Position numbers and translations under genes: made by a program
Shown here: in pieces, positions 23,651 to 36,288 of the stretch
Layout: each line of letters begins with the position of its first letter
Position numbering within the stretch: the first letter of the stretch is position 1
Source: an uncultured Bacteroidota bacterium
GTDB lineage: Bacteria; Bacteroidota; Bacteroidia; Bacteroidales; GCA-2748055
NCBI GenBank assembly: GCA_963783435.1
Contig: CAWANQ010000011.1
Coordinates: 12,808 to 76,807, forward strand
Length of the DNA: 64,000 nt
Reading direction: 5' to 3'
Notes under the pieces: generated by a model
What the model saw: the letters and a program-made list of their open reading frames with translations, nothing else
What the model was told of the DNA's origin: nothing
The model's database searches: none

Positions 23651-24541
23651 TTATTTAGGTCGCGCCACCATAATGCCTGTGGCCGATTTGCTGCTTACCA
23701 GATAATCTTCCAGGGTGTTTTCTGATACCACCACCTTTTTCGCAGCACTTGATGCATGTAAGAGGTGAACCCGCCCTGATCTCTTTACCAGGATGCCCAC
23801 ATGGGAGATGGCAAGGCCCTCCACCTGGGTGGTAATTCCCACAATATCACCCTCCATTAATTGGCTTTCTATCTCTGATACCATAGACTCGGGTACATAG
23901 TACATCTCTCTCTTTGAAATCTCTTGTTCCTGCCTGGCAATCACCTCTACCAGGGATGGATCCTCTTTTAATTGTCTGTAGCTATCGGGGTGATTACTCA
24001 TAAAAGAGATCTGTTTAGGAAGTGGTGTATTCGCAATACCTTTCGACATGTCCTTAAGGAGCCCTTTTTTCTCATTGTCATGGATCCAGTCACAGAAGTA
24101 GTGCAAACGGGAAGTGTATCCATCCAGGACTCCATCACGGTATCTTATCTTTTGTAATTCTGCAGCAAATTGCTCGAAAGTGGGTTGGGTACTTTGAATG
24201 GTTCCGGCCAGAGCCAGGCAGTACTCTGCAAAGGTGGTGCAATCCATTTCCCTCACATTGATCACCAGCTGCTCTCCATCCACTTCGAGCGTATGTGCCA
24301 CATAGGGTGTTTCCTGGAAATAGCCACCCACACTTGCCATTAATGTTGAAGTGGCAGCCTCTTTATCGTCAGAAAAATGCTCCAGAATCTCATCCACCAA
24401 ACTCCTGTCTTCCTTCTGGTAAGTCACTTTTTGTAAATCAATGAATGCTTGACTTAGAAGTGTATTACACTCCATGAACAGCAGCAGAGCCAGGAGGAAA
24501 CAGAGCCGGGATTTTCTCAAACATTGGATGTAGAATGTCAT
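23651..24541 (-). CDS. DUF1460 family protein (NlpC/P60-fold N-acetylmuramoyl-L-alanine amidase-like)
   Basis: 296 aa with a signal peptide. The Cys motif is REMDCTTFAEYCLAL and the His motif is ISHVGILV. Confidence 0.7.
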   Translation of the reverse strand: MTFYIQCLRKSRLCFLLALLLFMECNTLLSQAFIDLQKVTYQKEDRSLVDEILEHFSDDKEAATSTLMASVGGYFQETPYVAHTLEVDGEQLVINVREMDCTTFAEYCLALAGTIQSTQPTFEQFAAELQKIRYRDGVLDGYTSRLHYFCDWIHDNEKKGLLKDMSKGIANTPLPKQISFMSNHPDSYRQLKEDPSLVEVIARQEQEISKREMYYVPESMVSEIESQLMEGDIVGITTQVEGLAISHVGILVKRSGRVHLLHASSAAKKVVVSENTLEDYLVSSKSATGIMVARPK

Positions 24542-24858
24542 AAGAGCTTAATTTGTAATTAGTAAAGATAACAAGTTTCATCCATATCTTTTGTAGCCCG
24601 AAGTATAGTAATACGCATGATTCTGTGAGCATTGAATGCCATGTCAAAAAAACCTCTTTTTGCTTAAAACATCGTTTTTGAGATCTGATTGATTTACCAG
24701 GGATATGAGTATGATGTAAATCACCTTCTGATTATTTGCCAGCTTGAAGGGATTCCTTATTTTTAATGAGAGAATAAGGTATCATATACCGAATCTAACA
24801 AAAGCTAACTGAATTAGCCCATATAAATGGAGATTCACATCTCTTAAATAATATATCT

Positions 24859-25765
24859 ATGGAGAATAATTCCCGAAGAAAATTCATGAAAACACTGGGT
24901 GCTTCCCTGGGTACTGCCGGTGTGATAGGCAGTGGCAGTATCCTGGCTTCATGCAACAGGGTAGAAGAGGTATCCGGTGATAAGATTACGCTGCTTACCT
25001 CCAGTGGTGAACTGGTTGAGGTGGATAAATCGCAGCTCACACCGGCAGAAATGCCCTCTCTCACAGAAAATCAAAAAAGGGGAAGGAAAGGTTTACCCGG
25101 GAGGAGCTGGGTCATGGTGATTGACCTCTCCAAGTGCCGCAACGCACGTGAGTGTATGAAGGCATGCCAGAGCCATCATCAACTGAGGCCCGAGCAGCAT
25201 CACATCAATGTGCTTCAAATGCAGGAGACCGAGCAAACCTCTCCTTACTACATGCCTAAAGCCCTGTCAGCATTGCGACAATCCACCCTGTACCAAGGTT
25301 TGTCCGGTGAATGCCACATTCAAACGGGAAGATGGCATTGTATTGATCGACAATGAACGATGCATAGGTTGCAGATTCTGTATTGCTGCCTGTCCCTATT
25401 CGGCCAGGGTGTTTAACTGGTTTGAACCCAGGGATGCAGAGAAATATGAAGGGGTTACCTATAACATAGAGGCCAATGTACCTCAGAAGAAAGGGACCAT
25501 CTCCAAGTGCCTGTTCAGTGCAGACCGCTTGAGAGCAGGACAACTTCCTTCTTGCGTATCCGCCTGTCCCAATGGAGTTTACTGGTTTGGAGACCGCAAT
25601 GAGGACGCAGTAACCAATGGAACCACAAAGGAGACTGTAAGTTTCAGTAAACTGGTTGGAGAGGGAGCTGCTTATACCCTGATGAAGGAACTGGGTACGG
25701 CGCCCAGGGTATACTATTTGCCACCCAAGGACAGGGCCTTCCCTTTTGAAGCTGAACAAGTGTAA
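24859..25765 (+). pseudogene. Tat-exported 4Fe-4S ferredoxin-type subunit (NrfC/PsrB/ActB2-like), split by one extra base
   Basis: ORFs 24859..25356 and 25208..25765 join as ...TSPYYMPK|PCQHCDNPPCTKVCPVNATF...CIGCRFCIAACPY if base ~25261 is skipped. The Tat signal is SRRKFMKTLGA. Confidence 0.7.
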
Positions 25766-25786
25766 CAGAACTTAATTACCTGACAG

Positions 25787-27147
25787 ATGAATAAAATTGA
25801 ATCTCCTGAAGAATCGAGGAAGCTACTTGATAAGATAGTATTCGATTTAACAAGATCCATTGTAAAAAAGGATGAACTGACCAGGTTCTGGTTCTTTATT
25901 CTGATCATGTTCGCTGGTGTTGGATTATGGGGTTGGATCGTGCAGATCGACAATGGTTTGGGTGTGACAGGAATGCGGGACTATGTTTCCTGGGGATTGT
26001 ACATCGCCAACTTCGTTTTCTTTGTGGCGGTGAGCCTGGTGGGCCTTTTGATCAGCTCGGTGTTGCAGTTACTGAAAATAAGCTGGGCGAAGCCTGTATC
26101 CCGGGCTGCCGAGCAAATCGCCATTGCAGCTGTGGCCCTGGCAGGTATTATTATTGTGATGGACATGGGGCGTCCCGACAGGCTGCTTAATGTATTTATG
26201 CATGGCAGGTTTGCTTCACCCATCGTATGGGACCTAACCGTGGTTTCAACCTACCTGGCCATCTCTGTCCTGCTGTTTTACATACCCCTGATTCCGGATC
26301 TGGCCCTGATGCGTGACCGCATGGGATCAGAGCTTCCCAAATGGAAATTGAAGCTCTATAAAATACTGGCATTGGGCTGGAAGGGCAATGATCGACAATA
26401 CAAAACCGTTTACCATGCCCTCAGGGTGCTGATGATTCTGATTATTCCTGTTGGGCTTTCCATCCACACAGTTACCTCCTGGCTTTTCGCTGCCACCCTT
26501 CGTCCTGGATGGGACAGCACTATTTTCGGGCCCTATTTTGTAGTGGGTGCCTTTGTGGCCGGATCGGCAGCAGTCATTATTCTCATGTACGTATACCGGT
26601 TAAGGTATGGCCTCAAGGAGTATTTCGAAGATGTGCATTTTGATAAAATGGGCAGGTTCTGGTGCTGGTGAGCCTGGTCTACCTCTATTTCAACATCAAT
26701 GAATTTTTGGTTCCTGTTTACAAAATGAAGCTTGCTGAAGGGGTTCATCTCAGCGAACTTTTTTCCGGCGGTTATGCCTTTCTTTTCTGGTTTGTTCAGA
26801 TCGTGGGACTGGTCCTGCCCATCCTGCTGATCAGGTTGAAGTTTTTCAGGAAACCATTGCCACTCACACTAATTGCTGTGGTGGTGTTGTTGTCTGCCTG
26901 GTTTAAAAGATATTTAATTGTGATTCCCACCTTGGAACACCCCTTTTTGCCGGTCCAGAATGTACCCGAACACTTTCACCATTATGAGCCCACCAGCATC
27001 GAAGTAATGATCATGCTCTTTTCATTCTTTGCCAGTCTCTTAATCATATCTGTGCTGGCAAAGCTGTTTCCTGTAATCACCATCTGGGAGTATGCCGAGG
27101 AGAAAGGCATCGATAAGAAATACTTTACAGAAAAACCTAAAAACTAA
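25787..27147 (+). pseudogene. NrfD/PsrC-family polytopic quinol-interacting membrane subunit, split by one missing base
   Basis: ORFs 25787..26671 and 26662..27147 join as ...HFDKMGRF(L)VLVSLVYLYFNINEF if one base is restored at ~26660. The combined length of ~450 aa is typical for NrfD-like subunits. Confidence 0.7.
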
Positions 27148-27153
27148 CTGGCC

Positions 27154-28035
27154 ATGAAGAGAAAATGGAGTTATTTACCCGCGGTGCTGCTTATGTCATG
27201 TGCACAACTGGTTTTGGGTCAGGACTGGCTGGTGCCTGACGACGAGTCGGCTCTTCCCAACCCATCACCCTATACCCTGGAGAATATAAAAGCAGGGAAA
27301 GATTTGTATACCCTCAACTGCAAATCGTGCCACGGCGATCCCGGGAAAAACAATCCCCTGCTGCTGGTTCCAACACCGGTGGACATCGCCTCCGAAAAAA
27401 TGCATCTCAACAGTGAAGGTGCCCTCTTCTATAAAATTACCAAAGGGAGGGGTATCATGCCGCCGTTTGAGGGATCCATTTCTGAAGCGGACAGGTGGAG
27501 GCTGGTTAATTTTATTCAGAATTTCAAGCCGGGAGGAGAAATGCTGCTTGTGGATGCTCCCCCCATAAAAGCCAAGCTGTTGGCCTCTGTCAATGAACAG
27601 AATTCTACAGTGGAAATTCTGGCTGAATCTGAAGGTGAAAACAGCTCATTTTCCCAACTTGAGAATGCCCCGGTCATCATCAGTTCCAAGAGGGCTTTTG
27701 GTAACATTGAAATAGGACGGGCAACGACCAATGAAAATGGGAGGGCAGAATATAAAATCCCCGATCAGGTCATAGGGGATGAAGAGGGATACTTGAGCAT
27801 CGTGGTATCTCTGAGTGAAGATTATGAGGCCCAGGAGGTATACCTGGATAAAGCCAGGGTAGGTAAAATGAAAGAGGTTCCTCAATTGATTAAGAGCGAT
27901 GTCCTCTGGTCCACAAATGACAATGTGTCCCTGTGGTTGCTTTTTTCATACATCGCTTTTGCAGGAGGAGCCTGGGCCGTTATTGGATATGTGATCTTCC
28001 AGCTGATAAAGGTTAAAAAGTATAGCAAATCATAA
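27154..28035 (+). CDS. monohaem c-type cytochrome with C-terminal membrane anchor
   Basis: 293 aa with a signal peptide. There is a single CKSCHG haem site with a distal GIMPPF Met, and a C-terminal TM helix LWLLFSYIAFAGGAWAVIGYVIF. Confidence 0.85.
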   Translation: MKRKWSYLPAVLLMSCAQLVLGQDWLVPDDESALPNPSPYTLENIKAGKDLYTLNCKSCHGDPGKNNPLLLVPTPVDIASEKMHLNSEGALFYKITKGRGIMPPFEGSISEADRWRLVNFIQNFKPGGEMLLVDAPPIKAKLLASVNEQNSTVEILAESEGENSSFSQLENAPVIISSKRAFGNIEIGRATTNENGRAEYKIPDQVIGDEEGYLSIVVSLSEDYEAQEVYLDKARVGKMKEVPQLIKSDVLWSTNDNVSLWLLFSYIAFAGGAWAVIGYVIFQLIKVKKYSKS

Positions 28036-28049
28036 TATAATCGGGTCGG

Positions 28050-28217
28050 ATGAATATTTTCTATCTACTGATCGGAGTAAGCCTGCTCGCCGCACTTATT
28101 TTTCTGGGCGCCTTTATCTGGGCAGTTCGGAATGGTCAGTTTGAAGATAATGATACACCCGCAAGACGGATCTTGTTTGACGATGACCCCATTGAAAAAG
28201 AAGAGGTCCCTCATTGA
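28050..28217 (+). CDS. ccoS: cbb3-type cytochrome oxidase maturation protein CcoS (55 aa)
   Basis: It is below the ORF-track size cut-off. Manual translation gives MNIFYLLIGVSLLAALIFLGAFIWAVRNGQFEDNDTPARRILFDDDPIEKEEVPH*, the classic CcoS pattern. Confidence 0.8.
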   Translation: MNIFYLLIGVSLLAALIFLGAFIWAVRNGQFEDNDTPARRILFDDDPIEKEEVPH

Positions 28218-28337
28218 AATGAACTATTGAATTACGCGAGCGAAATCCCCAAAGCACTGCTGAGGGGTAAGCTAGCACAAATAAAATAAACATTGAATCG
28301 ATGATGCCTCGCAGCTTGCTGCGAGAAGAATCAATTA

Positions 28338-30512
28338 ATGCCAGAACCTATGGAAAACCAGAAATTCTATTACGACAATAAGATTGTAAAGTTATTTATT
28401 TTGGCCACGATCATCTGGGGCGTGGTGGCTGTGCTGGTTGGAGTGCTGATTGCATTACAAATCAGGTTTCCCTTCTTCAATTTCGGCCTGGAGTATACCA
28501 CATTTGGAAGGACAAGACCCATACATACCAACGCAGTGATATTCGCTTTTGTGGGGAATGCTATTTTTGCAGGGGTCTACTATTCTCTGCAGAAGCTTCT
28601 CAAAGCCCGACTGTTCAGCGATGTCCTCAGCAAGGTCCATTTTTGGGGATGGCAGCTGATCATTGTTCTTGCTGCAGTCACATTTGCGCTTGGTTTTACC
28701 ACCGGTAAGGAGTATGCAGAGCTGGAATGGCCCATCGATATAATGGTAGCCGCGGTGTGGGTGATCTTCGGATGGAACATGATTGGAACCATCCTGAAAC
28801 GGAGGGTCCAGCACATCTATGCCGCCATATGGTGGTACCTGGCCACCTTCCTGGGGGTCGCCATATTACACATAGTCAACTCATTTGAACTGCCCATCAG
28901 CCTGTTTAAAAGTTACCCTATTTATGCGGGTGCTCAGGATGCCGTGGTACAATGGTGGTATGGTCACAATGCAGTGGCATTTTTTCTGACCACTCCCTTC
29001 CTGGGATTGATGTATTACTATCTTCCCAAGGCTGCCAATCGACCCATCTATTCCTACAAGTTATCCATTATTCATTTCTGGTCACTCATCTTCTTGTACA
29101 TGTGGGCTGGTCCGCACCACTTACTCTACCAGGCTTTGCCCGAATGGGCACAGGCTTTGGGGGTCACCTTTTCCATCATGCTTATTGCTCCTTCCTGGGG
29201 AGGGATGATCAACGGATTGCTCACCCTGAGGGGAGCCTGGGATAAGGTAAGAGACAGTGCTGAGTTGAAGTTCCTGGTGGTAGCCGTAACAGCTTATGGC
29301 ATGTCTACCTTTGAAGGTCCCATGATGTCGCTGAAGAGTGTAAATTCGATGACGCACTTTACCGACTGGACCATTGCCCATACGCACATTGCAGGGATGG
29401 CCTGGAATGGGGGCATTGTGTTTGGCATGCTCTACTGGATGGTTCCCAAACTATTCAATACCAGCCTCTACTCTAAAAAACTGGCGAATGGGCATTTTTG
29501 GATCGCTACCCTTTCCATTTTGATTTACGCCATTCCACTCTATTGGTCAGCAGTAACCCAATGGCTCATGCTTCGTGAGTATACCCCGGAAGGATTTCTG
29601 ACCTATCCCAACTTTCTGGAAACCCTCACCCAGATACTTCCCATGTATACCATCCGCATATTAAGCGGGGTGATGTTCCTGGTGGGCTTCCTCCTGATGG
29701 TCGTCAACCTCTTTAAGACCATGGCTCTGGGCAAAATGGAAGACAATGAGCTTTCAGAAGCACCAGCTCTTGTGCAGCAGGGAGCAAGGAATCCAGTTAG
29801 GGAGACTGTCCACAGGTGGATGGAGAGAAAGGCCGTTCGCTTCTCCATCTGGGTGTTTGTCGCCCTGGCCATTGGGGGGGCAGTGGAGATAATTCCCATG
29901 ATTTTTATTAAGTCCAATATTCCAACCATTGAGGCGGTCACTCCTTATACACCCCTTGAGTTGGAGGGACGGGATATCTATATAAAGGAAGGTTGTTATA
30001 CCTGTCACTCACAAATGATCCGCCCATTCAGATGGGAAACCGATCGCTATGGGGAGTATTCCAAGATCGGAGAATTTGTTTATGATCACCCCTTTCAATG
30101 GGGATCGCGGCGAACGGGCCCCGACCTGGCCAGAGCAGGATATGTAAACGGACCCATGTATAAGAATGCAGCATGGCACTACAACCACTTTATGGATCCG
30201 CAGAAAATGAATGAGCAGTCGATCATGCCCAATTATGCCTGGTTTGCAGAGAATGAGATCAACCTCGATATGATCCCCAATAAAATACGGGCCATGCAAA
30301 CCCTGGGAGTACCCTATGAGGAAGGATATGATGAAGTGGCTGTGGAGGACCTGATGAGGCAGGCTCAAACCATTGTAGACGACCTGAAGCTCTCAAATAT
30401 TACCGTATCACCCACATCACATATGGTGGCTATGATTGCTTACATGCACAAATTGGGAAGAGACATTGATCCCGCCACATTAAACCAGACCAGTCATGAA
30501 GCTAGTGAGTAA
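28338..30512 (+). CDS. ccoNO: cbb3-type cytochrome c oxidase, fused subunits I and II (CcoN-CcoO)
   Basis: 724 aa. The N-terminal part is a haem-copper oxidase core (HFWGWQ, WAHTHIAG-like TIAHTHIAGMAWNG). The C-terminal part is CcoO with CYTCHSQMIRPF. Confidence 0.95.
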   Translation: MPEPMENQKFYYDNKIVKLFILATIIWGVVAVLVGVLIALQIRFPFFNFGLEYTTFGRTRPIHTNAVIFAFVGNAIFAGVYYSLQKLLKARLFSDVLSKVHFWGWQLIIVLAAVTFALGFTTGKEYAELEWPIDIMVAAVWVIFGWNMIGTILKRRVQHIYAAIWWYLATFLGVAILHIVNSFELPISLFKSYPIYAGAQDAVVQWWYGHNAVAFFLTTPFLGLMYYYLPKAANRPIYSYKLSIIHFWSLIFLYMWAGPHHLLYQALPEWAQALGVTFSIMLIAPSWGGMINGLLTLRGAWDKVRDSAELKFLVVAVTAYGMSTFEGPMMSLKSVNSMTHFTDWTIAHTHIAGMAWNGGIVFGMLYWMVPKLFNTSLYSKKLANGHFWIATLSILIYAIPLYWSAVTQWLMLREYTPEGFLTYPNFLETLTQILPMYTIRILSGVMFLVGFLLMVVNLFKTMALGKMEDNELSEAPALVQQGARNPVRETVHRWMERKAVRFSIWVFVALAIGGAVEIIPMIFIKSNIPTIEAVTPYTPLELEGRDIYIKEGCYTCHSQMIRPFRWETDRYGEYSKIGEFVYDHPFQWGSRRTGPDLARAGYVNGPMYKNAAWHYNHFMDPQKMNEQSIMPNYAWFAENEINLDMIPNKIRAMQTLGVPYEEGYDEVAVEDLMRQAQTIVDDLKLSNITVSPTSHMVAMIAYMHKLGRDIDPATLNQTSHEASE

Positions 30513-30687
30513 TTTACTGGAGAACATTGCAGGAATCCAGATCTTTTACGTGGTCGGACTCCTGATTTTCTTCGTGCTGTTCCTGGTCATCGTGGTACGC
30601 ACCCTTCGCCGACCCGCAAAGGAGATGAATGAGATCAAAGAATCCATATTAACCGATAATGACTCGGAAGAGTTGATAATATCTTAA
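30496..30687 (+). CDS. ccoQ: CcoQ/FixQ-like small membrane subunit
   Basis: 63 aa with a single TM helix. It lies between ccoNO and ccoP and overlaps the ccoNO stop. Confidence 0.65.
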   Translation: MKLVSNLLENIAGIQIFYVVGLLIFFVLFLVIVVRTLRRPAKEMNEIKESILTDNDSEELIIS

Positions 30688-30699
30688 ATTATAAAGGGT

Positions 30700-31287
30700 A
30701 TGGAAGAGAATACTCAGAATAACAATCAGCATACATCCCCTGAGGTGGATGAGCATATGATGGAGCACAATTACGATGGCATCCAGGAGTTGGACAATCC
30801 GCCACCCCGATGGATCATGGCCATATTTTATATCACCATTGGTTTTTCCATCATCTATGCTGCCAACTATTTCTGGCTGGATGTGGGTGACCTCCAGGAG
30901 GCCAAGTACGTAAAGAAATCCCAGAAACACGATGCCAAGTATCAACTGGCCAGTGCAGAAACTGGGGAACTGCAGTTGCTTACCGAGGCAAGTGATATCG
31001 CCGCCGGGAAAGAGATCTATGCATCCATGAGCTGCTTTGCCTGTCACGGCATGAACGGAGAGGGCAATGCCATCGGACCCAATCTTACTGACGATGCGTG
31101 GATCAGCGGGTGTGATTTTCAGAGTGTATTTAACATGGTGAAAAATGGAAATCCGGCCAAAGGTATGACTGCCTTTAAGGCCCAGCTCAGTGACACAAAG
31201 ATTCAGCAGGTATCCAGTTATGTCCTGAGCCTGAGGGGGAGCAATCCTGCCAACGCCAAAGCACCTCAGGGGGAAGCCTGTGAGTAA
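30700..31287 (+). CDS. ccoP: cbb3-type cytochrome c oxidase subunit III (short, monohaem CcoP)
   Basis: 195 aa. The FixP_N motif is YDGIQELDNPPPRWIM, and the haem site is CFACHG. Confidence 0.85.
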   Translation: MEENTQNNNQHTSPEVDEHMMEHNYDGIQELDNPPPRWIMAIFYITIGFSIIYAANYFWLDVGDLQEAKYVKKSQKHDAKYQLASAETGELQLLTEASDIAAGKEIYASMSCFACHGMNGEGNAIGPNLTDDAWISGCDFQSVFNMVKNGNPAKGMTAFKAQLSDTKIQQVSSYVLSLRGSNPANAKAPQGEACE

Positions 31288-32644
31288 TACAGATCTTTCT
31301 TTCAGAGACCGGCCCATTAACCTGGACGAGAGGGGAGGTCGTAAGTGGGTATATGCGAAAAAGCCAAAGGGCTTTTGGTATACCCGTCGAACCATTTTCA
31401 GCTGGTTTGTTTTGCTGTTTTTTATAGCAGTCCCTTTTATCAGAATAAACGGAAATCCCTTTATCCTTCTGGATGTAGAAGGACGTCGCTTCATCATATT
31501 TGGAGCCATTTTCTGGGCACAGGACACGTTGATCCTGGCCCTGTTGATGCTCTCCTTTGTACTATTCATTGTGCTCTTTACGGTCACCTTTGGGAGGCTT
31601 TGGTGTGGTTGGGCCTGTCCACAGACCATCTTTCTGGAGATGGTCTTCCGGAAGGTGGAGTACCTGATTGAAGGTGATTATCGCAAAAGACATAAGCTGG
31701 ATAAGGGACCATGGACACTGGAAAAGGCAGGCAAGAAGCTGGCCAAACACTCCATCTTTATTCTGATCTCATTGGCCATGACCAATACATTTCTCATGTG
31801 GTTTATAGGGAGCGAAAAATGGTTTGTTCTTGTCTCTGAGCCCATTTCTTCCAACTCTACTGGTTTTATTATTATGCTTATGGTCTCAGGATTCTTTTAT
31901 TGGGTTTATTCCTGGTTTCGGGAGCAGATATGCACCATGGTATGTCCCTATGGAAGAATGCAGGGGGTGTTGCTGGACTCCAATTCCATTGTGGTTAGCT
32001 ATGACTACAAGCGCGGAGAACCCCGGGGACCTAAAACCAGTGGCGATTGCATCGATTGCCATCAATGCCTCTCGGTCTGTCCCACCGGCATAGATATTCG
32101 CAACGGGACGCAGTTGGAATGCATCAATTGTACGGCCTGCATAGATCAGTGCAACAGTGTGATGAAAGCCACAGGAAAGAAGCCGGGACTCATCCGTTTC
32201 GATTCTGAAAAGGGAATTCAACATGGACACCAGAGCATCTGGAATCCCAGGAACAAGGCCTATTCGGTGGTCTTGCTTATTCTGCTATCCTTCTTTGTAT
32301 ACACCCTTCTGTCGCGGCCCATCATCGAAACCACCATTCTTCGGACTCCCGGTCTGCTCTACCAGGAGAATGAAAACAGCACCATTTCCAATGTTTATAA
32401 CCTGAAAATTGTAAATAAAACCCACGATAACTTACCTTTGGAGATCAGACTGCTTTCCCATGAAGGGGAGATTAAGATGGCAGGAAACCTCATGGAGATA
32501 GCCGACCAGTCTATGTTTGAGGCCACCTTTATTCTTTATATTCATAGCGATCTTTTAAGCAGCGATAAAACCGAAGTCGAGTTCGGAATATACAGCAACA
32601 ATGAATTGATTGAGACTTACAAAACCTCCTTTGTGAGTCCGTAA
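31280..32644 (+). CDS. ccoG: cytochrome c oxidase accessory protein CcoG (4Fe-4S)
   Basis: 454 aa. Motifs are WCGWACPQT, CIDCHQCLSVCP and CINCTACIDQC. Confidence 0.9.
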   Translation: MSNTDLSFRDRPINLDERGGRKWVYAKKPKGFWYTRRTIFSWFVLLFFIAVPFIRINGNPFILLDVEGRRFIIFGAIFWAQDTLILALLMLSFVLFIVLFTVTFGRLWCGWACPQTIFLEMVFRKVEYLIEGDYRKRHKLDKGPWTLEKAGKKLAKHSIFILISLAMTNTFLMWFIGSEKWFVLVSEPISSNSTGFIIMLMVSGFFYWVYSWFREQICTMVCPYGRMQGVLLDSNSIVVSYDYKRGEPRGPKTSGDCIDCHQCLSVCPTGIDIRNGTQLECINCTACIDQCNSVMKATGKKPGLIRFDSEKGIQHGHQSIWNPRNKAYSVVLLILLSFFVYTLLSRPIIETTILRTPGLLYQENENSTISNVYNLKIVNKTHDNLPLEIRLLSHEGEIKMAGNLMEIADQSMFEATFILYIHSDLLSSDKTEVEFGIYSNNELIETYKTSFVSP

Positions 32645-32674
32645 GGCCTGCAGGCCTTAATAAAAGCGAGAGAA

Positions 32675-33115
32675 ATGAAATTTAACTGGGGAACGGGAAT
32701 ATTGATTTTCCTGATACTGTTTTTAATGGCAGCGGGAGTCTTTATTACCTTTGCCATGAGGCAGGAGGTAAACCTGGTTCATGATGATTACTATGAAAGA
32801 GGGGTGGACTATGGGGACCAGATGAAAGCGGAAGCCAGGTCGGCGGTCCTGGCCGATTCCATTCAAAGCTATTTTGAGAACCAATCCCTGGTGGTAGACT
32901 TCTCCCATTTGGAATTGATGAAGATCGATTCGGGATCTATACTCCTTTATCGGCCTTCGAGCAAGAGCCTGGACTTGAAGATGCCTTTGGATTATTCCAC
33001 CGGGTTCATGAGCATTCCCCGGGATGAGTTGATAAGGGGGAGGTATATTCTCAAGCTCAACTGGTACTCGGAGGGCTTGAAATACGAAGTTGATAAAGCC
33101 GTTCAAATTCCTTAA
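32675..33115 (+). CDS. FixH family protein (CcoH-like)
   Basis: 146 aa with an N-terminal TM helix, then VHDDYYERG. It sits directly after ccoG. Confidence 0.75.
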   Translation: MKFNWGTGILIFLILFLMAAGVFITFAMRQEVNLVHDDYYERGVDYGDQMKAEARSAVLADSIQSYFENQSLVVDFSHLELMKIDSGSILLYRPSSKSLDLKMPLDYSTGFMSIPRDELIRGRYILKLNWYSEGLKYEVDKAVQIP

Positions 33116-33130
33116 GTCCGATTTAAAGTC

Positions 33131-33898
33131 ATGGTCATTCTATTTTCAGCACTGGTTCTTGGTTTAATGGGGAGTTTCCATTGTGCCGGAATGTGCGGAC
33201 CCATTGCCATTGCACTGCCCCTTCACGGGAACAGTATTCCGCAAAAGATTTTTGGAGGTACCCTCTACAACCTGGGAAGAACCCTGACTTACGGGGTGAT
33301 GGGGGCCATCTTCGGACTGCTGGGCCAGGGAGTGGAGATGATTGGATTTCAACAGAAGATCTCAATCATTATGGGAGCCATCATGATCCTATCTGTGATA
33401 TTTCCTTCCCTTTTTAGAAACCAGTATAACATGGAGAAGAGCTGGTTCTCCCTGGTGGGAAAACTAAAAAAATCCATTGGGAAACTATTTTCGGTACGCT
33501 CCTTTTCAAGCCTTTTTTTTATAGGATTGTTAAACGGATTGCTTCCATGCGGTCTGGTTTATATGGCCATCGCTGGCGCCATTGGAACCGGCGAGGTGGT
33601 GCTGGGGGCTCTCTATATGGTCATGTTCGGACTGGGCACCATTCCCATGATGCTCTCCATAGCCATTGCCGGGAATATCCTGAGTGTAGCCATCCGGCGC
33701 AAGATAAACCGCCTGATCCCGGTACTGGTAGTGGTGGTGGGAATCTTCTTTATTTTACGTGGATTGAGCCTGGGCATTCCCTACCTGAGTCCTCCAAAAG
33801 AGAAAATTGAGAAAAAGTTTGAGAAGAGTCTGGAAAAAGAGAAACAGGGGACTGCACAATCTTCATCCGGCGGATGCTGCACCCTTCACTTGCGATGA
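33131..33898 (+). CDS. TauE/SafE / DsbD_2-like membrane protein
   Basis: 255 aa and polytopic, with an N-terminal GSFHCAGMCGP motif. It is a common member of Bacteroidota cco clusters. Confidence 0.7.
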   Translation: MVILFSALVLGLMGSFHCAGMCGPIAIALPLHGNSIPQKIFGGTLYNLGRTLTYGVMGAIFGLLGQGVEMIGFQQKISIIMGAIMILSVIFPSLFRNQYNMEKSWFSLVGKLKKSIGKLFSVRSFSSLFFIGLLNGLLPCGLVYMAIAGAIGTGEVVLGALYMVMFGLGTIPMMLSIAIAGNILSVAIRRKINRLIPVLVVVVGIFFILRGLSLGIPYLSPPKEKIEKKFEKSLEKEKQGTAQSSSGGCCTLHLR

Positions 33899-36288
33899 AT
33901 AAGCTGGAAGACAATAGCTGTGTTCATTGTGGGGCCGACTGTGGGAAAAACCCGGTCACCTGGAAAAACCTTTCCTTTTGCTGCAACGGGTGCCTTACGG
34001 TCTACCAACTTCTCCACGAGAATAAGCTCTATAGTTATTACGAAATTGAACAGACTCCCGGAATAAAATTAGAAACCACCGGATTTGGAAATAAGTATGC
34101 CTTTCTGGATAAGGATGAGATCAGGGAGAAGCTTATCTCTTTTTCAGAAGGTGGAATTTCAAAAGTTAAGTTTTACATTCCGGTGATTCACTGCTCCTCC
34201 TGCATTTGGCTGCTGGAGCATCTCTATACCCTGAACCGGGGCATCAAGCACTCCTTTGTGAATTTTACCAGGAAAGAGGTGGATGTGACATTTGATGAAT
34301 CTCAGATCTCCCTCCGCCAGGTGGTGGAGTTGCTCTCTTCCATACACTACATTCCTGATTTGTCCCATAGCCTTTCGGAGAAGAAGGAAGATAAGCACTC
34401 TTACAAGAAATTGCTCCTTAAAATGGGTGTGGCCGGATTTGTTTTTATCAATGTGATGACCTACAGCCTGCCTGCTTATTTTAATGGAGAGCCCCTGGAG
34501 GATAATTTGCAGTCCCTGCTCAGTTTGCTTAGCTATTTTCTGGTCATTCCTGTGGTTTTTTACAGTGGCAGTGATTATTTTATATCAACCTATAAAAACC
34601 TTCGGAAAAAGAATGTGAGCATAGACCTGCCCATTGCCCTGGGGATATTTGTGCTTTTCGGGGTAAGCAGCTATGAAATCCTCTTTACAGGTGGTCAGGG
34701 ATATTGCGACAGTCTTTCGGGTTTAATCTTCTTTCTCCTGGTGGGAAAATGGTACCAGGGAAAAACCTACGAAGCGCTCTCATTTGACCGAAATTACAAG
34801 TCCTATTTTCCCATAGCCGTAACCAAGATCAACAAACAGATTGAAGAGAGTGTATTGCTTGAGCAAATCAGGGAGAAGGACGAATTGATTATTCGCAACA
34901 AGGAGCTTATCCCTGCCGATTCCATAGTGCTGGAAGGAAATGGCAGGATTGACTACAGCTTTGTTACCGGCGAATCAACGCCTTTGGTGAAAAATCCGGG
35001 CGATTTTATCTATGCAGGGGGAAGGCAGATGGGTGAGCTGATCAAAATCCGGGTACAGAAGGAGGTGAGTCAAAGTCATCTCACCAAGCTATGGAATCAG
35101 GATAAAACCTATGAGAAACCCAGCGATTCGTTAAAAACCCTTTCAGATAAGATCAGCAAATATTTCACCATGACCATTGTGGCCATCGCCATCTCAGGTT
35201 TTGCATTCTGGATGCTGAAAGGGGAGACCCACACCGCCATCTTTGTTTTTACAGCTGTTTTGATAGTAGCCTGTCCCTGCGCACTGGCCCTTTCCATCCC
35301 TTTTACATTTGGAAACACCATGCGGATTTTCGGGAAGAACGGCCTCTATATCAAGAACACAAATGTCATCGAACGTCTGTCGCATATTGATACCGTGGTT
35401 TTTGATAAAACCGGAACCCTTACACGCCCCAATGAAAGCAAAATTGTCTACTCAGGCACGACCCTCAGTGAGGCAGAGAAGAGTGCCATATACTCCCTGG
35501 CCAAACAATCGACCCATCCCCTGAGCCTTGCGGTAGCCACCTATCATCAGGGGGCAACATATCACCAGCCAGAGCACTTTGTAGAGGTGTCGGGCAGGGG
35601 GATCTACGGAAAAGTAGAGGGTATAGAGGTGAAAATAGGATCCTGGGAGTATGTAAAAGGGGAGGAAGGGAATGGATCACAAGAAGAAACTGAAGTTCAC
35701 CTCTCCATCAACAAGCAGCCTGTTGGAAATTATGCCATCGGCAACCAGTACCGGGAAGGATTTGAACAGGTACTGGGTTTCCTGAAAGCGCATTTTAATC
35801 TCTACCTTATTTCGGGAGATAACGATTCGGAAGCGGATCACCTGTCAGCCTATTTTAAAAAGGAACACCTGCTTTTTAATCAGAAACCAGCCGACAAGGC
35901 AGATTTTATCAAATCCTTGCAGGATAAAGGTCATACGGTACTGATGACCGGCGATGGGCTTAATGATGGGGGAGCCCTGATGCAGAGTGATGTGGCACTC
36001 ACCATTGCCAACAAGGTCTACCACTTCTCGCCCGCCAGCGATGCGGTGCTGGAGGCAGCCCAGTTCCAGAAACTGGCCCGCTTTATCAGGTATACGAGAA
36101 CTTCGTTAAATATCGTGAAGCTCAGTTTTTTAATCTCATTCCTCTACAATATCATTGGAATCAGTTTTGCGATCACTGGCAATCTATCTCCCATTGTGGC
36201 TGCCATTCTGATGCCGGTCAGCTCAATATCGGTAGTGGCCTTTGCTACTTTTGTGACCCGGGCTACAGGAAAGTTTACCGGGTCCTGA
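33895..36288 (+). CDS. ccoI: copper-translocating P-type ATPase (CcoI/FixI-like)
   Basis: Motifs are an N-terminal CVHCGADC metal site, the TM motif CPCAL, the phosphorylation site DKTGTLT, and the hinge GDGLNDG. The ATG at 33895 (ATGA overlap) is preferred to the track start at 33874. Confidence 0.85.
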   Translation: MNKLEDNSCVHCGADCGKNPVTWKNLSFCCNGCLTVYQLLHENKLYSYYEIEQTPGIKLETTGFGNKYAFLDKDEIREKLISFSEGGISKVKFYIPVIHCSSCIWLLEHLYTLNRGIKHSFVNFTRKEVDVTFDESQISLRQVVELLSSIHYIPDLSHSLSEKKEDKHSYKKLLLKMGVAGFVFINVMTYSLPAYFNGEPLEDNLQSLLSLLSYFLVIPVVFYSGSDYFISTYKNLRKKNVSIDLPIALGIFVLFGVSSYEILFTGGQGYCDSLSGLIFFLLVGKWYQGKTYEALSFDRNYKSYFPIAVTKINKQIEESVLLEQIREKDELIIRNKELIPADSIVLEGNGRIDYSFVTGESTPLVKNPGDFIYAGGRQMGELIKIRVQKEVSQSHLTKLWNQDKTYEKPSDSLKTLSDKISKYFTMTIVAIAISGFAFWMLKGETHTAIFVFTAVLIVACPCALALSIPFTFGNTMRIFGKNGLYIKNTNVIERLSHIDTVVFDKTGTLTRPNESKIVYSGTTLSEAEKSAIYSLAKQSTHPLSLAVATYHQGATYHQPEHFVEVSGRGIYGKVEGIEVKIGSWEYVKGEEGNGSQEETEVHLSINKQPVGNYAIGNQYREGFEQVLGFLKAHFNLYLISGDNDSEADHLSAYFKKEHLLFNQKPADKADFIKSLQDKGHTVLMTGDGLNDGGALMQSDVALTIANKVYHFSPASDAVLEAAQFQKLARFIRYTRTSLNIVKLSFLISFLYNIIGISFAITGNLSPIVAAILMPVSSISVVAFATFVTRATGKFTGS

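Follow-up and report, generated by a model that had tools for sequence, protein, structure and literature searches.

The locus lies in a 64,000-nt stretch of a Bacteroidales genome (the window, to whose positions all coordinates refer) and consists of a three-gene cluster, here called the trio (24859-28035), followed by the genes of a cbb3 oxidase, all on the + strand. The features are as follows.

24542..24858, no strand: intergenic region on the upstream side of the trio, probable operon start
24859..25765, +: NrfC/ActB2-like FeS subunit with Tat signal, about 301 aa if read through; frame broken
25787..27147, +: ActC-like NrfD membrane subunit, about 10 hydrophobic segments; frame broken
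27154..28035, +: monohaem cytochrome c, the third subunit, 293 residues (Cytochrome_CBB3, 2e-12)
28050..28217, +: ccoS, cbb3 maturation (TIGR00847, 55.9 bits, cut-off 28.35)
28338..30512, +: fused ccoNO, cbb3 subunits I and II (NF011053, 1163 bits, cut-off 1080)
30496..30687, +: ccoQ-like small membrane protein (FixQ match under cut-off)
30700..31287, +: ccoP, 195 aa, FixP_N and one cytochrome c domain (family searches)
31280..32644, +: ccoG (TIGR02745, 416 bits, cut-off 316.7)
32675..33115, +: ccoH (FixH; family search)
33131..33898, +: DsbD_2-family membrane protein (family search)
33874..36288, +: ccoI, copper P-type ATPase (family search)

The order FeS protein, NrfD-like protein and monohaem cytochrome c, then ccoS-ccoNO-Q-P-G-H-I, is that of the original prediction, and the open reading frames and family matches confirm it; a DsbD-like gene additionally sits between ccoH and ccoI. 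The genes of the run are separated by gaps of 6-120 nt or overlap. The scores of ccoNO, ccoS and ccoG exceed curated cut-offs, assigning the downstream genes to a cbb3 operon; the monohaem ccoP scores under its equivalog cut-off (96.5 versus 180). Because the neighbouring AmiA-like amidase gene (23651-24541) is on the opposite strand, the operon probably starts within 24542-24858. A terminator and promoter scan of 24400-28500, with a promoter model not of the Bacteroidetes type, gave counts at shuffle level. The palindrome TGAYN4RTCA at 24712-24723 is the sole such match upstream of the trio; an FNR/CRP-like box as a conserved feature was rejected, since only 1 of 71 related loci has such a box in the 300 nt that precede the FeS gene (background 0.03 per 300 nt).

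The FeS gene occupies two frames, 24859-25356 and 25208-25765, and its product matches TAT_signal_seq (17.9 bits, cut-off 16.7) and Fer4_11 (3e-22). The NrfD gene is similarly divided into 25787-26671 (PF03916, 6e-29) and 26662-27147. A Tat-exported multi-cluster ferredoxin together with a PF03916 membrane subunit identifies the pair as an NrfC/NrfD-type module. The best NCBIfam matches, scored on the broken pieces, are DsrO (150.2 bits, cut-off 200) and DsrP (124.3, cut-off 350); both fall short of the equivalog cut-offs that define DsrMKJOP. The third subunit comprises, in order, a signal peptide, a class I monohaem cytochrome c domain with a single CxxCH (residues 56-60) and Met102, an Ig-like beta-sandwich, and one C-terminal hydrophobic membrane helix (260-278).

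The single-base disruptions that had been noted in both the FeS and the NrfD gene are present in the assembly, as +1 and -1 changes respectively. DNA alignment to two same-genus orthologues locates an extra A at about 25257-25260 in the FeS gene (a run of three A, versus two in relatives) and one missing G after 26658 in the NrfD gene (two G, versus three in metagenome contigs). The same-genus orthologues are unbroken (NrfD 454-457 aa; FeS 308 aa in genome G001). Among the sequencing runs searched, the best holds 0.54 of the assembly's sampled words, and related metagenome contigs were used instead. In near-identical contigs from four sediment metagenomes, the extra A is absent from all three runs that cover the site, and the missing G is present in four of four. 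Were the frameshifts real, this strain would have no working module: the family would function elsewhere, the two genes here would be a recent pseudogene pair, and cbb3 would be fed by Alternative Complex III (ACIII) or a Rieske/cytochrome b cluster via soluble cytochrome c. Two independent breaks in adjacent genes are what such decay could produce, the genome does contain these other quinol oxidisers (see below), and the ActF gene of its ACIII is also frame-split. This reading is nevertheless the less probable one, since each indel alters the length of a short homopolymer run by one base, both frames are whole in near-identical environmental DNA, and, indels aside, there are no stop codons or other decay and identity to G001 is 87-92% (FeS) and 90-94% (NrfD). 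Furthermore, 7 of 134 testable genes in the assembly are split, ActF among them; this proportion, about 5%, looks like an assembly-wide error rate, and sequencing error is likely for that reason. Both frameshifts are appreciably more likely to be assembly errors than real lesions. Probably they arose in assembly or are confined to this strain, and they are probably no sign of pathway loss.

In the PDB, the NrfD subunit matches only four ActC sequences (E 2e-54 to 9e-50), near full length. Section 7 of PMC8076601 names S164, D169, H139 and R395 as quinol-site residues of R. marinus ActC. An ActC alignment carried onto a 65-sequence NrfD alignment places S164, D169 and R395 at S145, D150 and R376 of the trio NrfD, all invariant; H139 corresponds to an invariant aspartate, D127, as in DsrP and QrcD, and the quinol-site residue D253 is not kept (L234). 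The FeS subunit aligns with 31% identity to residues 743-989 of ActB from its own genome (the 308-aa orthologue gives a main BLASTP alignment of 2e-36 with the 996-aa protein, over the same residues), and also to PsrB. It features four Cys motifs with 14 Cys invariant among 65 sequences, from which one or two three-Cys clusters would be expected. Motifs I and IV are without their second Cys, and IV has an invariant Ser; group III keeps the full CxxCxxCxxxCP, unlike the 3-Cys group of the genome's own ActB, a site which we take to bind a [3Fe-4S] cluster. The haem domain resembles c552, c6 and ActE, the matches to ActE chains being weak (E 1.5e-5 and 3.5e-5; Foldseek 6lod_E, 3.8e-5). A decayed ACIII was considered and rejected because the Cys pattern differs, the third subunit is distinct, the NrfD identity to the genome's own ActC is about 34%, and the trio is intact across hundreds of genomes. 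The complex probably represents a family of its own, simpler than ACIII and related to its ActB2/ActC/ActE core, and not a cut-down ACIII.

Prediction of the three-chain complex gave a score of 0.74, versus 0.42 for the best of three controls. The mark for this score is reached by 116 of 157 solved complexes and by 2 of 215 mismatched pairs, a calibration that is only rough here, with our own alignments and a three-chain job. The runs have at least 88% of contacts in common, with a partner pLDDT of at least 80. In the confident contacts, the C-terminal helix of the cytochrome is predicted to pack on NrfD residues 141-226 and its Ig-like domain on the FeS subunit; the haem domain is outside the confident interface.

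Related loci (n = 80) were collected with the NrfD alignment, and all three open reading frames are intact in 69. Downstream of these (same strand, within 7 kb) are ccoNO in 28, COX1 in 24, NapA in 4 and NarG in 4; there is none of these in 5, and 4 loci end too early. Genes for cbb3, caa3, Nap or Nar are therefore directly downstream in 60 of the 65 informative loci, and in the other 5 the trio stands alone as a three-gene operon. Co-occurrence and synteny with ccoNO, proposed as a check on the original prediction, hold up in these 28 intact loci and in the same-genus genomes G001 and G002, where the cco operon and the trio are likewise syntenic. In records of cultured relatives such as Marinifilum, Ancylomarina and Labilibaculum (loci L061-L063, L073), the trio immediately precedes ccoI-ccoS-ccoNO. 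The cbb3, caa3, Nap and Nar contexts have no conserved fourth gene in common. Two of the 80 loci encode NrfD-cytochrome c fusions (756 and 760 aa). In a quick tree, NrfD sub-clades track the neighbouring terminal enzyme; its deep branching, which has long branches and was not relied on, places ActC, ActF and the NrfD of a haem-less sister line beside the Nar-linked trio clade (support 81).

The window itself contains no bc1 and no ACIII genes, as had been stated, and the trio locus has neither the Rieske nor the cytochrome b gene that would define bc1/b6f. On contig C5 of the same genome, ActA-B-C-D-E-F adjoin a caa3 oxidase, and a Rieske and cytochrome b pair (C5:60486-62315) is followed by a 682-aa multihaem cytochrome c. 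The lack of a complex III, which had been used as an argument for the trio, is thus contradicted by the genome search; given the ACIII and the Rieske/cytochrome b cluster, cbb3 need not depend on the trio. A bc1 or ACIII elsewhere in the genome, combined with loss of cco synteny in relatives, had been named as the outcome that would tell against the proposal; the former was found, and the latter was not seen. From gene content, the trio would be one of three candidate quinol-oxidising routes in this genome, paired with cbb3, while ACIII is placed beside caa3.

The phyletic pattern was examined in one draw of 201 Bacteroidales genomes. Trio-type NrfD, counted by its score tier alone and not by FeS or cytochrome genes genome by genome, occurs in 42, ActD in 32, and both in 5. 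Mutual exclusion of trio and ACIII was rejected, with about 6.7 genomes with both expected by chance. An A- or C-type oxidase is encoded in 68 genomes: the trio marker occurs without ActD in 34 of them, ActD without the marker in 25, the two together in 5, and neither in 4. The marker is present in 39 of these 68, versus 3 of the 133 oxidase-less genomes. The 34 oxidase-bearing genomes with the trio marker only yielded no ActD and no strong match to cytochrome b.

Taken together, the trio probably forms a compact membrane complex that would oxidise menaquinol and pass the electrons, through its own tethered cytochrome c, to the adjacent terminal enzyme, here cbb3. Quinol would bind to the ActC-like NrfD subunit at its periplasmic face; the electrons would then cross the four FeS clusters of the Tat-exported subunit and arrive at the third subunit's haem. 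This third subunit would dock to FeS and NrfD through its Ig-like domain and C-terminal helix, leaving the haem domain on a tether, from which the cytochrome would feed the terminal enzyme encoded alongside. Of the earlier proposal of an electron-entry module for cbb3, the conserved unit and its terminal-enzyme neighbours stand, while the premise of a missing complex III does not; the trio appears to behave like an electron-entry module for terminal enzymes.

It is possible to imagine the complex running in reverse, as a cytochrome c:menaquinone reductase, or serving another partner as a generic periplasmic redox hub. Qrc, Nhc and DsrJOP also combine a cytochrome c, an FeS protein and an NrfD protein, and they reduce quinone (PMC8076601, section 5; PMC13059093); the latter source describes Qrc as running opposite to the direction proposed here. 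The trio is also found beside NarGHI and NapAGHB, which carry quinol-oxidising subunits of their own, and five informative loci have no terminal enzyme alongside. These observations must be set against the association of the marker with cytochrome c oxidases and against the 34 oxidase-bearing genomes described above. In addition, the haem domain is of the class I high-potential type (c552/c6/ActE-like), in contrast with the low-potential multihaem donors of Qrc, and we consider a reverse or hub role improbable.

A similarly slim chance is given to the trio having no catalytic role alone, either as one component of a bigger complex or supercomplex or as an accessory of oxidase assembly. It is almost always co-encoded with a terminal enzyme, and the ACIII of Flavobacterium johnsoniae reportedly forms a supercomplex with the aa3 oxidase. 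However, the predicted electron path is complete, running from a membrane subunit with a quinol site along an FeS wire to a haem; self-standing three-gene operons occur, and no additional gene is shared across the four contexts. Menaquinol oxidation by a compact three-subunit complex remains the preferred reading.

Many Bacteroidales have cytochrome c oxidases without bc1 and without ACIII, so that the route from quinol to cytochrome c is a gap. A literature search, whose coverage did not extend to the main review of the NrfD family (Duarte et al. 2021, BBA 1862:148416), found no published description of the trio family. There is perhaps an even chance that the trio represents a modular, so far unrecognised family of quinol:acceptor oxidoreductases with three subunits (FeS, ActC-like NrfD and an Ig-anchored third subunit). 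Such a family would be the sole counterpart of complex III in about half of the Bacteroidales that have an oxidase; each of its paralogues would serve a single terminal enzyme (cbb3, caa3, Nap or Nar), perhaps as supercomplexes, and a haem-less sister line would be wired to outer-membrane cytochrome systems. Should a three-subunit enzyme bridge the gap between quinol and cytochrome c, it would be the smallest known analogue of complex III, which is usually far larger, and a simple model in which to study energy conservation by NrfD-type subunits. The widespread annotation of these genes as polysulfide reductase or HybB-like, by which metabolic reconstructions of sediment and gut-related Bacteroidales are led astray, would be corrected as well.

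Among the known systems closest to the trio is ACIII (PDB ID: 6F0K, 6BTM, 6LOD, 8K9E). The trio NrfD is closest to ActC, with no other PDB match, and its approximately 10 hydrophobic segments agree with the ten-helix, quinol-site type of ActC; the FeS subunit can be aligned to ActB over the latter's C-terminal FeS domain, the monohaem cytochrome is weakly ActE-like, cytochrome c oxidase genes adjoin, and the presumed job, passing electrons from quinol to cytochrome c, is the same. In contrast with ACIII, the trio is not accompanied by a pentahaem ActA (no multihaem gene lies within 24542-36288, and ActA is only on C5), by ActD (the only PF11821 match is at C5:275874-276353) or, at its locus, by a second NrfD-like gene, ActF. 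Its FeS subunit is without the molybdopterin-like ActB1 domain and has its Cys-deficient motifs at I and IV rather than III, and its cytochrome features an Ig-like domain and a C-terminal helix, both absent from ActE. The dimeric quinol dehydrogenase modules of the NrfCD and PsrBC type (CISM family) share the Tat-exported four-cluster ferredoxin and the cofactor-less NrfD with a P-side quinol site, and PMC6303296 and PMC3534657 accept such pairs as able to work without a molybdopterin subunit and to donate to periplasmic cytochromes. They differ from the trio, whose operon has a dedicated, anchored monohaem third subunit, sometimes fused to NrfD, and whose NrfD has 10 helices rather than 8, of the ActC/DsrP branch. 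DsrJOP of DsrMKJOP, QrcABCD and NhcABCD likewise combine a cytochrome c with an FeS protein and an NrfD-like protein; the trio differs in its cytochrome (monohaem class I, not multihaem), its partners (oxidases and nitrate reductases, not sulfite reduction) and its presumed direction, quinol oxidation. The haem-less sister clusters of Bacteroidales (loci L119-L122) have the same layout of FeS, NrfD and third subunit, the latter with a homologous Ig-like domain and helix (hhalign probability 99.5%, E 3e-22); their third subunit, however, is without CxxCH, their FeS subunit has 15 Cys, and genes for multihaem cytochromes, a DUF5777 outer-membrane barrel and cytochrome b561 lie next to them.

The trio comprises three genes which, in the ORF calls for the window, are made of five ORFs on the + strand. 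It is bordered upstream by a divergent amidase gene.

23651-24541, divergent from the trio: amidase gene
24859-25356 and 25208-25765, + strand: Tat-signal FeS protein in two ORFs (TAT_signal_seq above cut-off; Fer4_11, 3e-22)
25787-26671 and 26662-27147, + strand: NrfD-family membrane protein in two ORFs (PF03916, 6e-29)
27154-28035, + strand: cytochrome c of 293 residues with a single CxxCH

Downstream follow ccoS, a fused ccoNO, a ccoQ-like ORF, ccoP, ccoG, ccoH, a DsbD_2 protein and ccoI, and all genes of the trio and the cco operon overlap or are separated by gaps of 6-120 nt. The original prediction described these genes correctly, as the ORFs and family matches found here confirm. The top NCBIfam match of the FeS protein is DsrO and the NrfD protein matches DsrP, both under the cut-off; in the source records the genes carry only generic names (polysulfide reductase NrfD, HybB-like, cytochrome c). 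The ccoP product (30700-31287) is a 195-residue protein consisting of FixP_N and one haem domain, scoring 96.5 against the ccoP equivalog cut-off of 180; relatives match it over its full length and have a ccoP of the same size. A 12-base palindrome of the FNR/CRP half-site type is located at 24712-24723, 147 nt ahead of the FeS start; relatives do not conserve it (1 of 71 loci).

Scanning species-representative genomes with the NrfD alignment confirmed at least 506 relatives, and the best 80 loci were taken with 10-kb flanks. According to their record titles these 80 are nearly all from Bacteroidota, chiefly Bacteroidales (Prolixibacteraceae, Marinifilaceae and others), with one titled Chlorobi; the query is matched at 100% identity by one locus, L066. 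In 69 of the 80 no trio ORF is broken, and for these the nearest terminal-enzyme gene was recorded among the genes that follow on the strand of the trio, up to 7 kb away. It is ccoNO in 28 of the 69 loci, COX1 of a caa3-type operon in 24, NapA in 4 and NarG in 4. Five loci have no terminal enzyme, the stand-alone trios being followed by housekeeping genes, and in four the sequence ends too early, so that 60 of 65 informative loci have an enzyme. The caa3, NapAGHB and NarGH(J)I contexts were verified by Pfam in four loci, and both oxidases lie inside 20 kb in 16 loci. In a quick maximum-likelihood tree the NrfD sequences cluster by the adjoining enzyme (support of 100 for the cbb3-linked Prolixibacteraceae, 99 for Nap and 100 for Nar); the deep branching, in which long branches are involved, is not relied on. 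Some genomes, such as G025, carry two trio copies in different contexts.

Among the Prolixibacteraceae loci L040-L058, a caa3 operon (SCO1-like, COX1, COX3, COX2) is divergent from the trio-cbb3 operon, which places the trio between both oxidases; at L040, genes of alternative complex III (ACIII) come after the caa3 operon. Two genes always come between a Nar-linked trio and NarGHJI (L030:7558-8956 of G025; L099, L101, L106, L109, L116): one for a conserved protein of 161 aa that has no Pfam match, the other for a dihaem cytochrome c of 292 aa with a weak CCP_MauG match. For a nitrate reductase that contains NarI, the company of a cytochrome c module is odd.

Four family searches covered a single evenly drawn sample of the order, 201 genomes in all, with 197 rated as good quality. 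Scores against the NrfD profile fall into three tiers, of which the top one (>550 bits, plus the split gene of the source genome) served as the trio marker. This marker, the NrfD gene alone, is present in 42 of the 201 genomes and ActD in 32; they coincide in 5 genomes, where chance would give about 6.7. Cytochrome b is strongly matched (E <1e-30) in 14 genomes, two of which have the marker. By our own tiering (PF00115, best E <=1e-100), 68 genomes bear an A- or C-type oxidase, and another 14 have weaker matches that were left unclassified. Of the oxidase-bearing genomes, 34 have the marker without ActD, 25 have ActD without the marker, 5 have both, and 4 lack both; one of these four has a strong cytochrome b. 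In the 133 genomes without such an oxidase, the marker occurs in 3 (all assemblies of 440-990 contigs) and ActD in 2. This pattern, drawn from related rather than independent genomes and from the NrfD marker alone, matches the expectation for a complex III substitute.

It had been proposed that the trio is a minimal quinol:cytochrome c oxidoreductase feeding cbb3, and the absence of bc1 and ACIII was part of the argument. That premise fails at the level of the genome, since contig C5 encodes ActA, ActB (996 aa), ActC, ActD, ActE and a split ActF, with an A-type oxidase subunit I approximately 9 kb away, and also a bc-type complex in the form of a clustered Rieske protein, 454-aa cytochrome b and 682-aa multihaem cytochrome c (G000:C5:56000-67000, G000 being the source genome). 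The trio is therefore not the sole possible path to cytochrome c in this organism. What stands is the kind of module: the gene context and phyletic data argue for a small quinol:cytochrome c module tied to an oxidase, a reading that appears right in kind.

The source genome has five NrfD-family genes. A further pair of FeS (313 aa) and NrfD (422 aa) proteins (G000:C18:14000-30000) has two GcvH-domain proteins and a sigma-54 two-component system as its flanking genes. Another cluster (G000:C4:428000-444000) combines a 151-aa multihaem cytochrome c, a 196-aa FeS protein, a 395-aa NrfD and a 553-aa protein that has no Pfam match; this too may be a quinol module. Divergent from the Rieske/cytochrome b cluster is a 779-aa multihaem/TPR/HEAT protein.

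The breaks in the FeS and NrfD genes could be true lesions or assembly errors. Aligned at the DNA level with two same-genus orthologues, the FeS gene has one A too many in a short run of A (about 25257-25260), and the NrfD gene lacks a base after 26658. In the same-genus genome G001 the trio ORFs are intact (308, 454 and 294 aa), and NrfD orthologues with open frames of 455-457 aa and 81-94% identity are present in 5 of 24 other genomes of the genus (G001, G022, G009, G023, G002). The whole stretch is found in no public run, the maximum being 0.54 of sampled words. Logan contigs from four sediment-type metagenomes were aligned to the window at >=90% likeness, some differing by just 2-3 letters per 200-600. 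The extra A is absent in all three runs spanning the site (depths 13, 5.6 and 8.9), and a G is inserted after 26658 in four of four (depths 2.2, 4.2, 2.6 and 9.0, the low ones being weak alone). For a background rate, 1174 ORFs of all loci from other genomes were searched against the source genome, and its genes matched at >=45% identity were counted. Seven of 134 each appear as a pair of neighbouring pieces whose frames differ: the FeS and NrfD genes of the trio, ActF (G000:C5:276947-278102; L012:12879-14112), which is a single 389-aa ORF in G001, and four unrelated genes (C13:73010-73763, C15:20291-21536, C2:642465-643779, C4:874023-875530). This suggests an assembly-wide indel problem; we infer that the indel rate of this assembly is elevated and that both trio breaks are probably errors rather than lesions.

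A physical link between the subunits is seen at two loci (L100:9992-12262 and L107:9959-12241), where NrfD and cytochrome c are domains of one protein (756 or 760 aa). At the fusion junction a linker rich in Lys is retained, as is a hydrophobic segment that resembles a signal peptide and has a possible peptidase site; this segment could be an eleventh helix or else be cleaved after insertion. In a three-chain prediction of the G001 proteins, with the cytochrome as partner, the complex scores 0.74, compared with 0.42 for the best of three controls. Among solved complexes 116 of 157 attain the mark, and among mismatched pairs 2 of 215; our custom alignments and three-chain format differ from this calibration. 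The runs have >=88% of contacts in common, with a partner pLDDT of >=80. Confident contacts are predicted between the C-terminal helix of the cytochrome and NrfD residues 141-226, and between its sandwich and the FeS subunit. The haem domain is outside the confident interface, which would fit a tethered carrier and proves nothing. Structures of ACIII already exist, so the predicted FeS-NrfD pairing may be memorised; we know of no solved complex resembling the third subunit.

The fold of the cytochrome is predicted with high confidence (mean pLDDT 92): behind a signal peptide come a cytochrome c domain of class I, a beta-sandwich with its strands at 138-234, and a helix at the C-terminus (260-293). 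In Foldseek searches the haem domain resembles c552, c6 and ActE, and the sandwich Ig/fn3-like domains. In the middle NrfD tier (350-395 bits) are clusters where FeS and NrfD are accompanied by a protein of 287-310 residues that lacks CxxCH (L119, G087:C20:196000-215900, where the cluster is in three tandem copies; L120, L121, L122). By hhalign (99.5%, E 3e-22), this haem-less third protein is homologous to the sandwich-plus-helix of the trio cytochrome; the anchor of the third subunit thus marks a wider family, in which the haem domain would be an exchangeable head. With multihaem cytochromes, a DUF5777 outer-membrane barrel, cytochrome b561 and small monohaem cytochromes as neighbours, the sister clusters look like a quinol-to-envelope electron chain.

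A full-text literature search, with Duarte et al. 2021 outside its reach, found no description of the trio, and none of the named NrfD complexes listed by Calisto and Pereira 2021 (section 5) matches it. Podosokorskaya et al. 2013 and Duarte et al. 2018 state in general terms that NrfCD pairs need no catalytic subunit to be able to serve cytochromes of the periplasm.

In the PDB, the four ActC sequences are the only ones matched by the intact NrfD orthologue (E 2e-54 to 9e-50, residues 3-438 of 454); PsrC is not matched in this search. The R. marinus ActC quinol-site positions listed in section 7 of PMC8076601 (S164, D169, H139, R395, D253) align with S145, D150, D127, R376 and L234, respectively, all invariant within the trio NrfD family. 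The first four are compatible with a functioning quinol site; the fifth, D253, is not retained. The FeS orthologue has PsrB as its best PDB match (7e-31) and ActB as the longest in span, and aligns with residues 743-989 of the ActB of the source genome at 31% identity. Fourteen Cys are invariant in a 65-sequence alignment. Motif I is C-x5-C-x3-C, with the second Cys absent, motifs II and III are complete, and motif IV is C-x2-S...C-x3-C with an invariant Ser; by analogy with four-cluster ferredoxins in general, the two membrane-distal clusters would each have three Cys ligands. In the ActB of the source genome it is motif III that lacks the second Cys, whereas in the trio FeS subunit it is motifs I and IV. 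The trio is not a member of ACIII.
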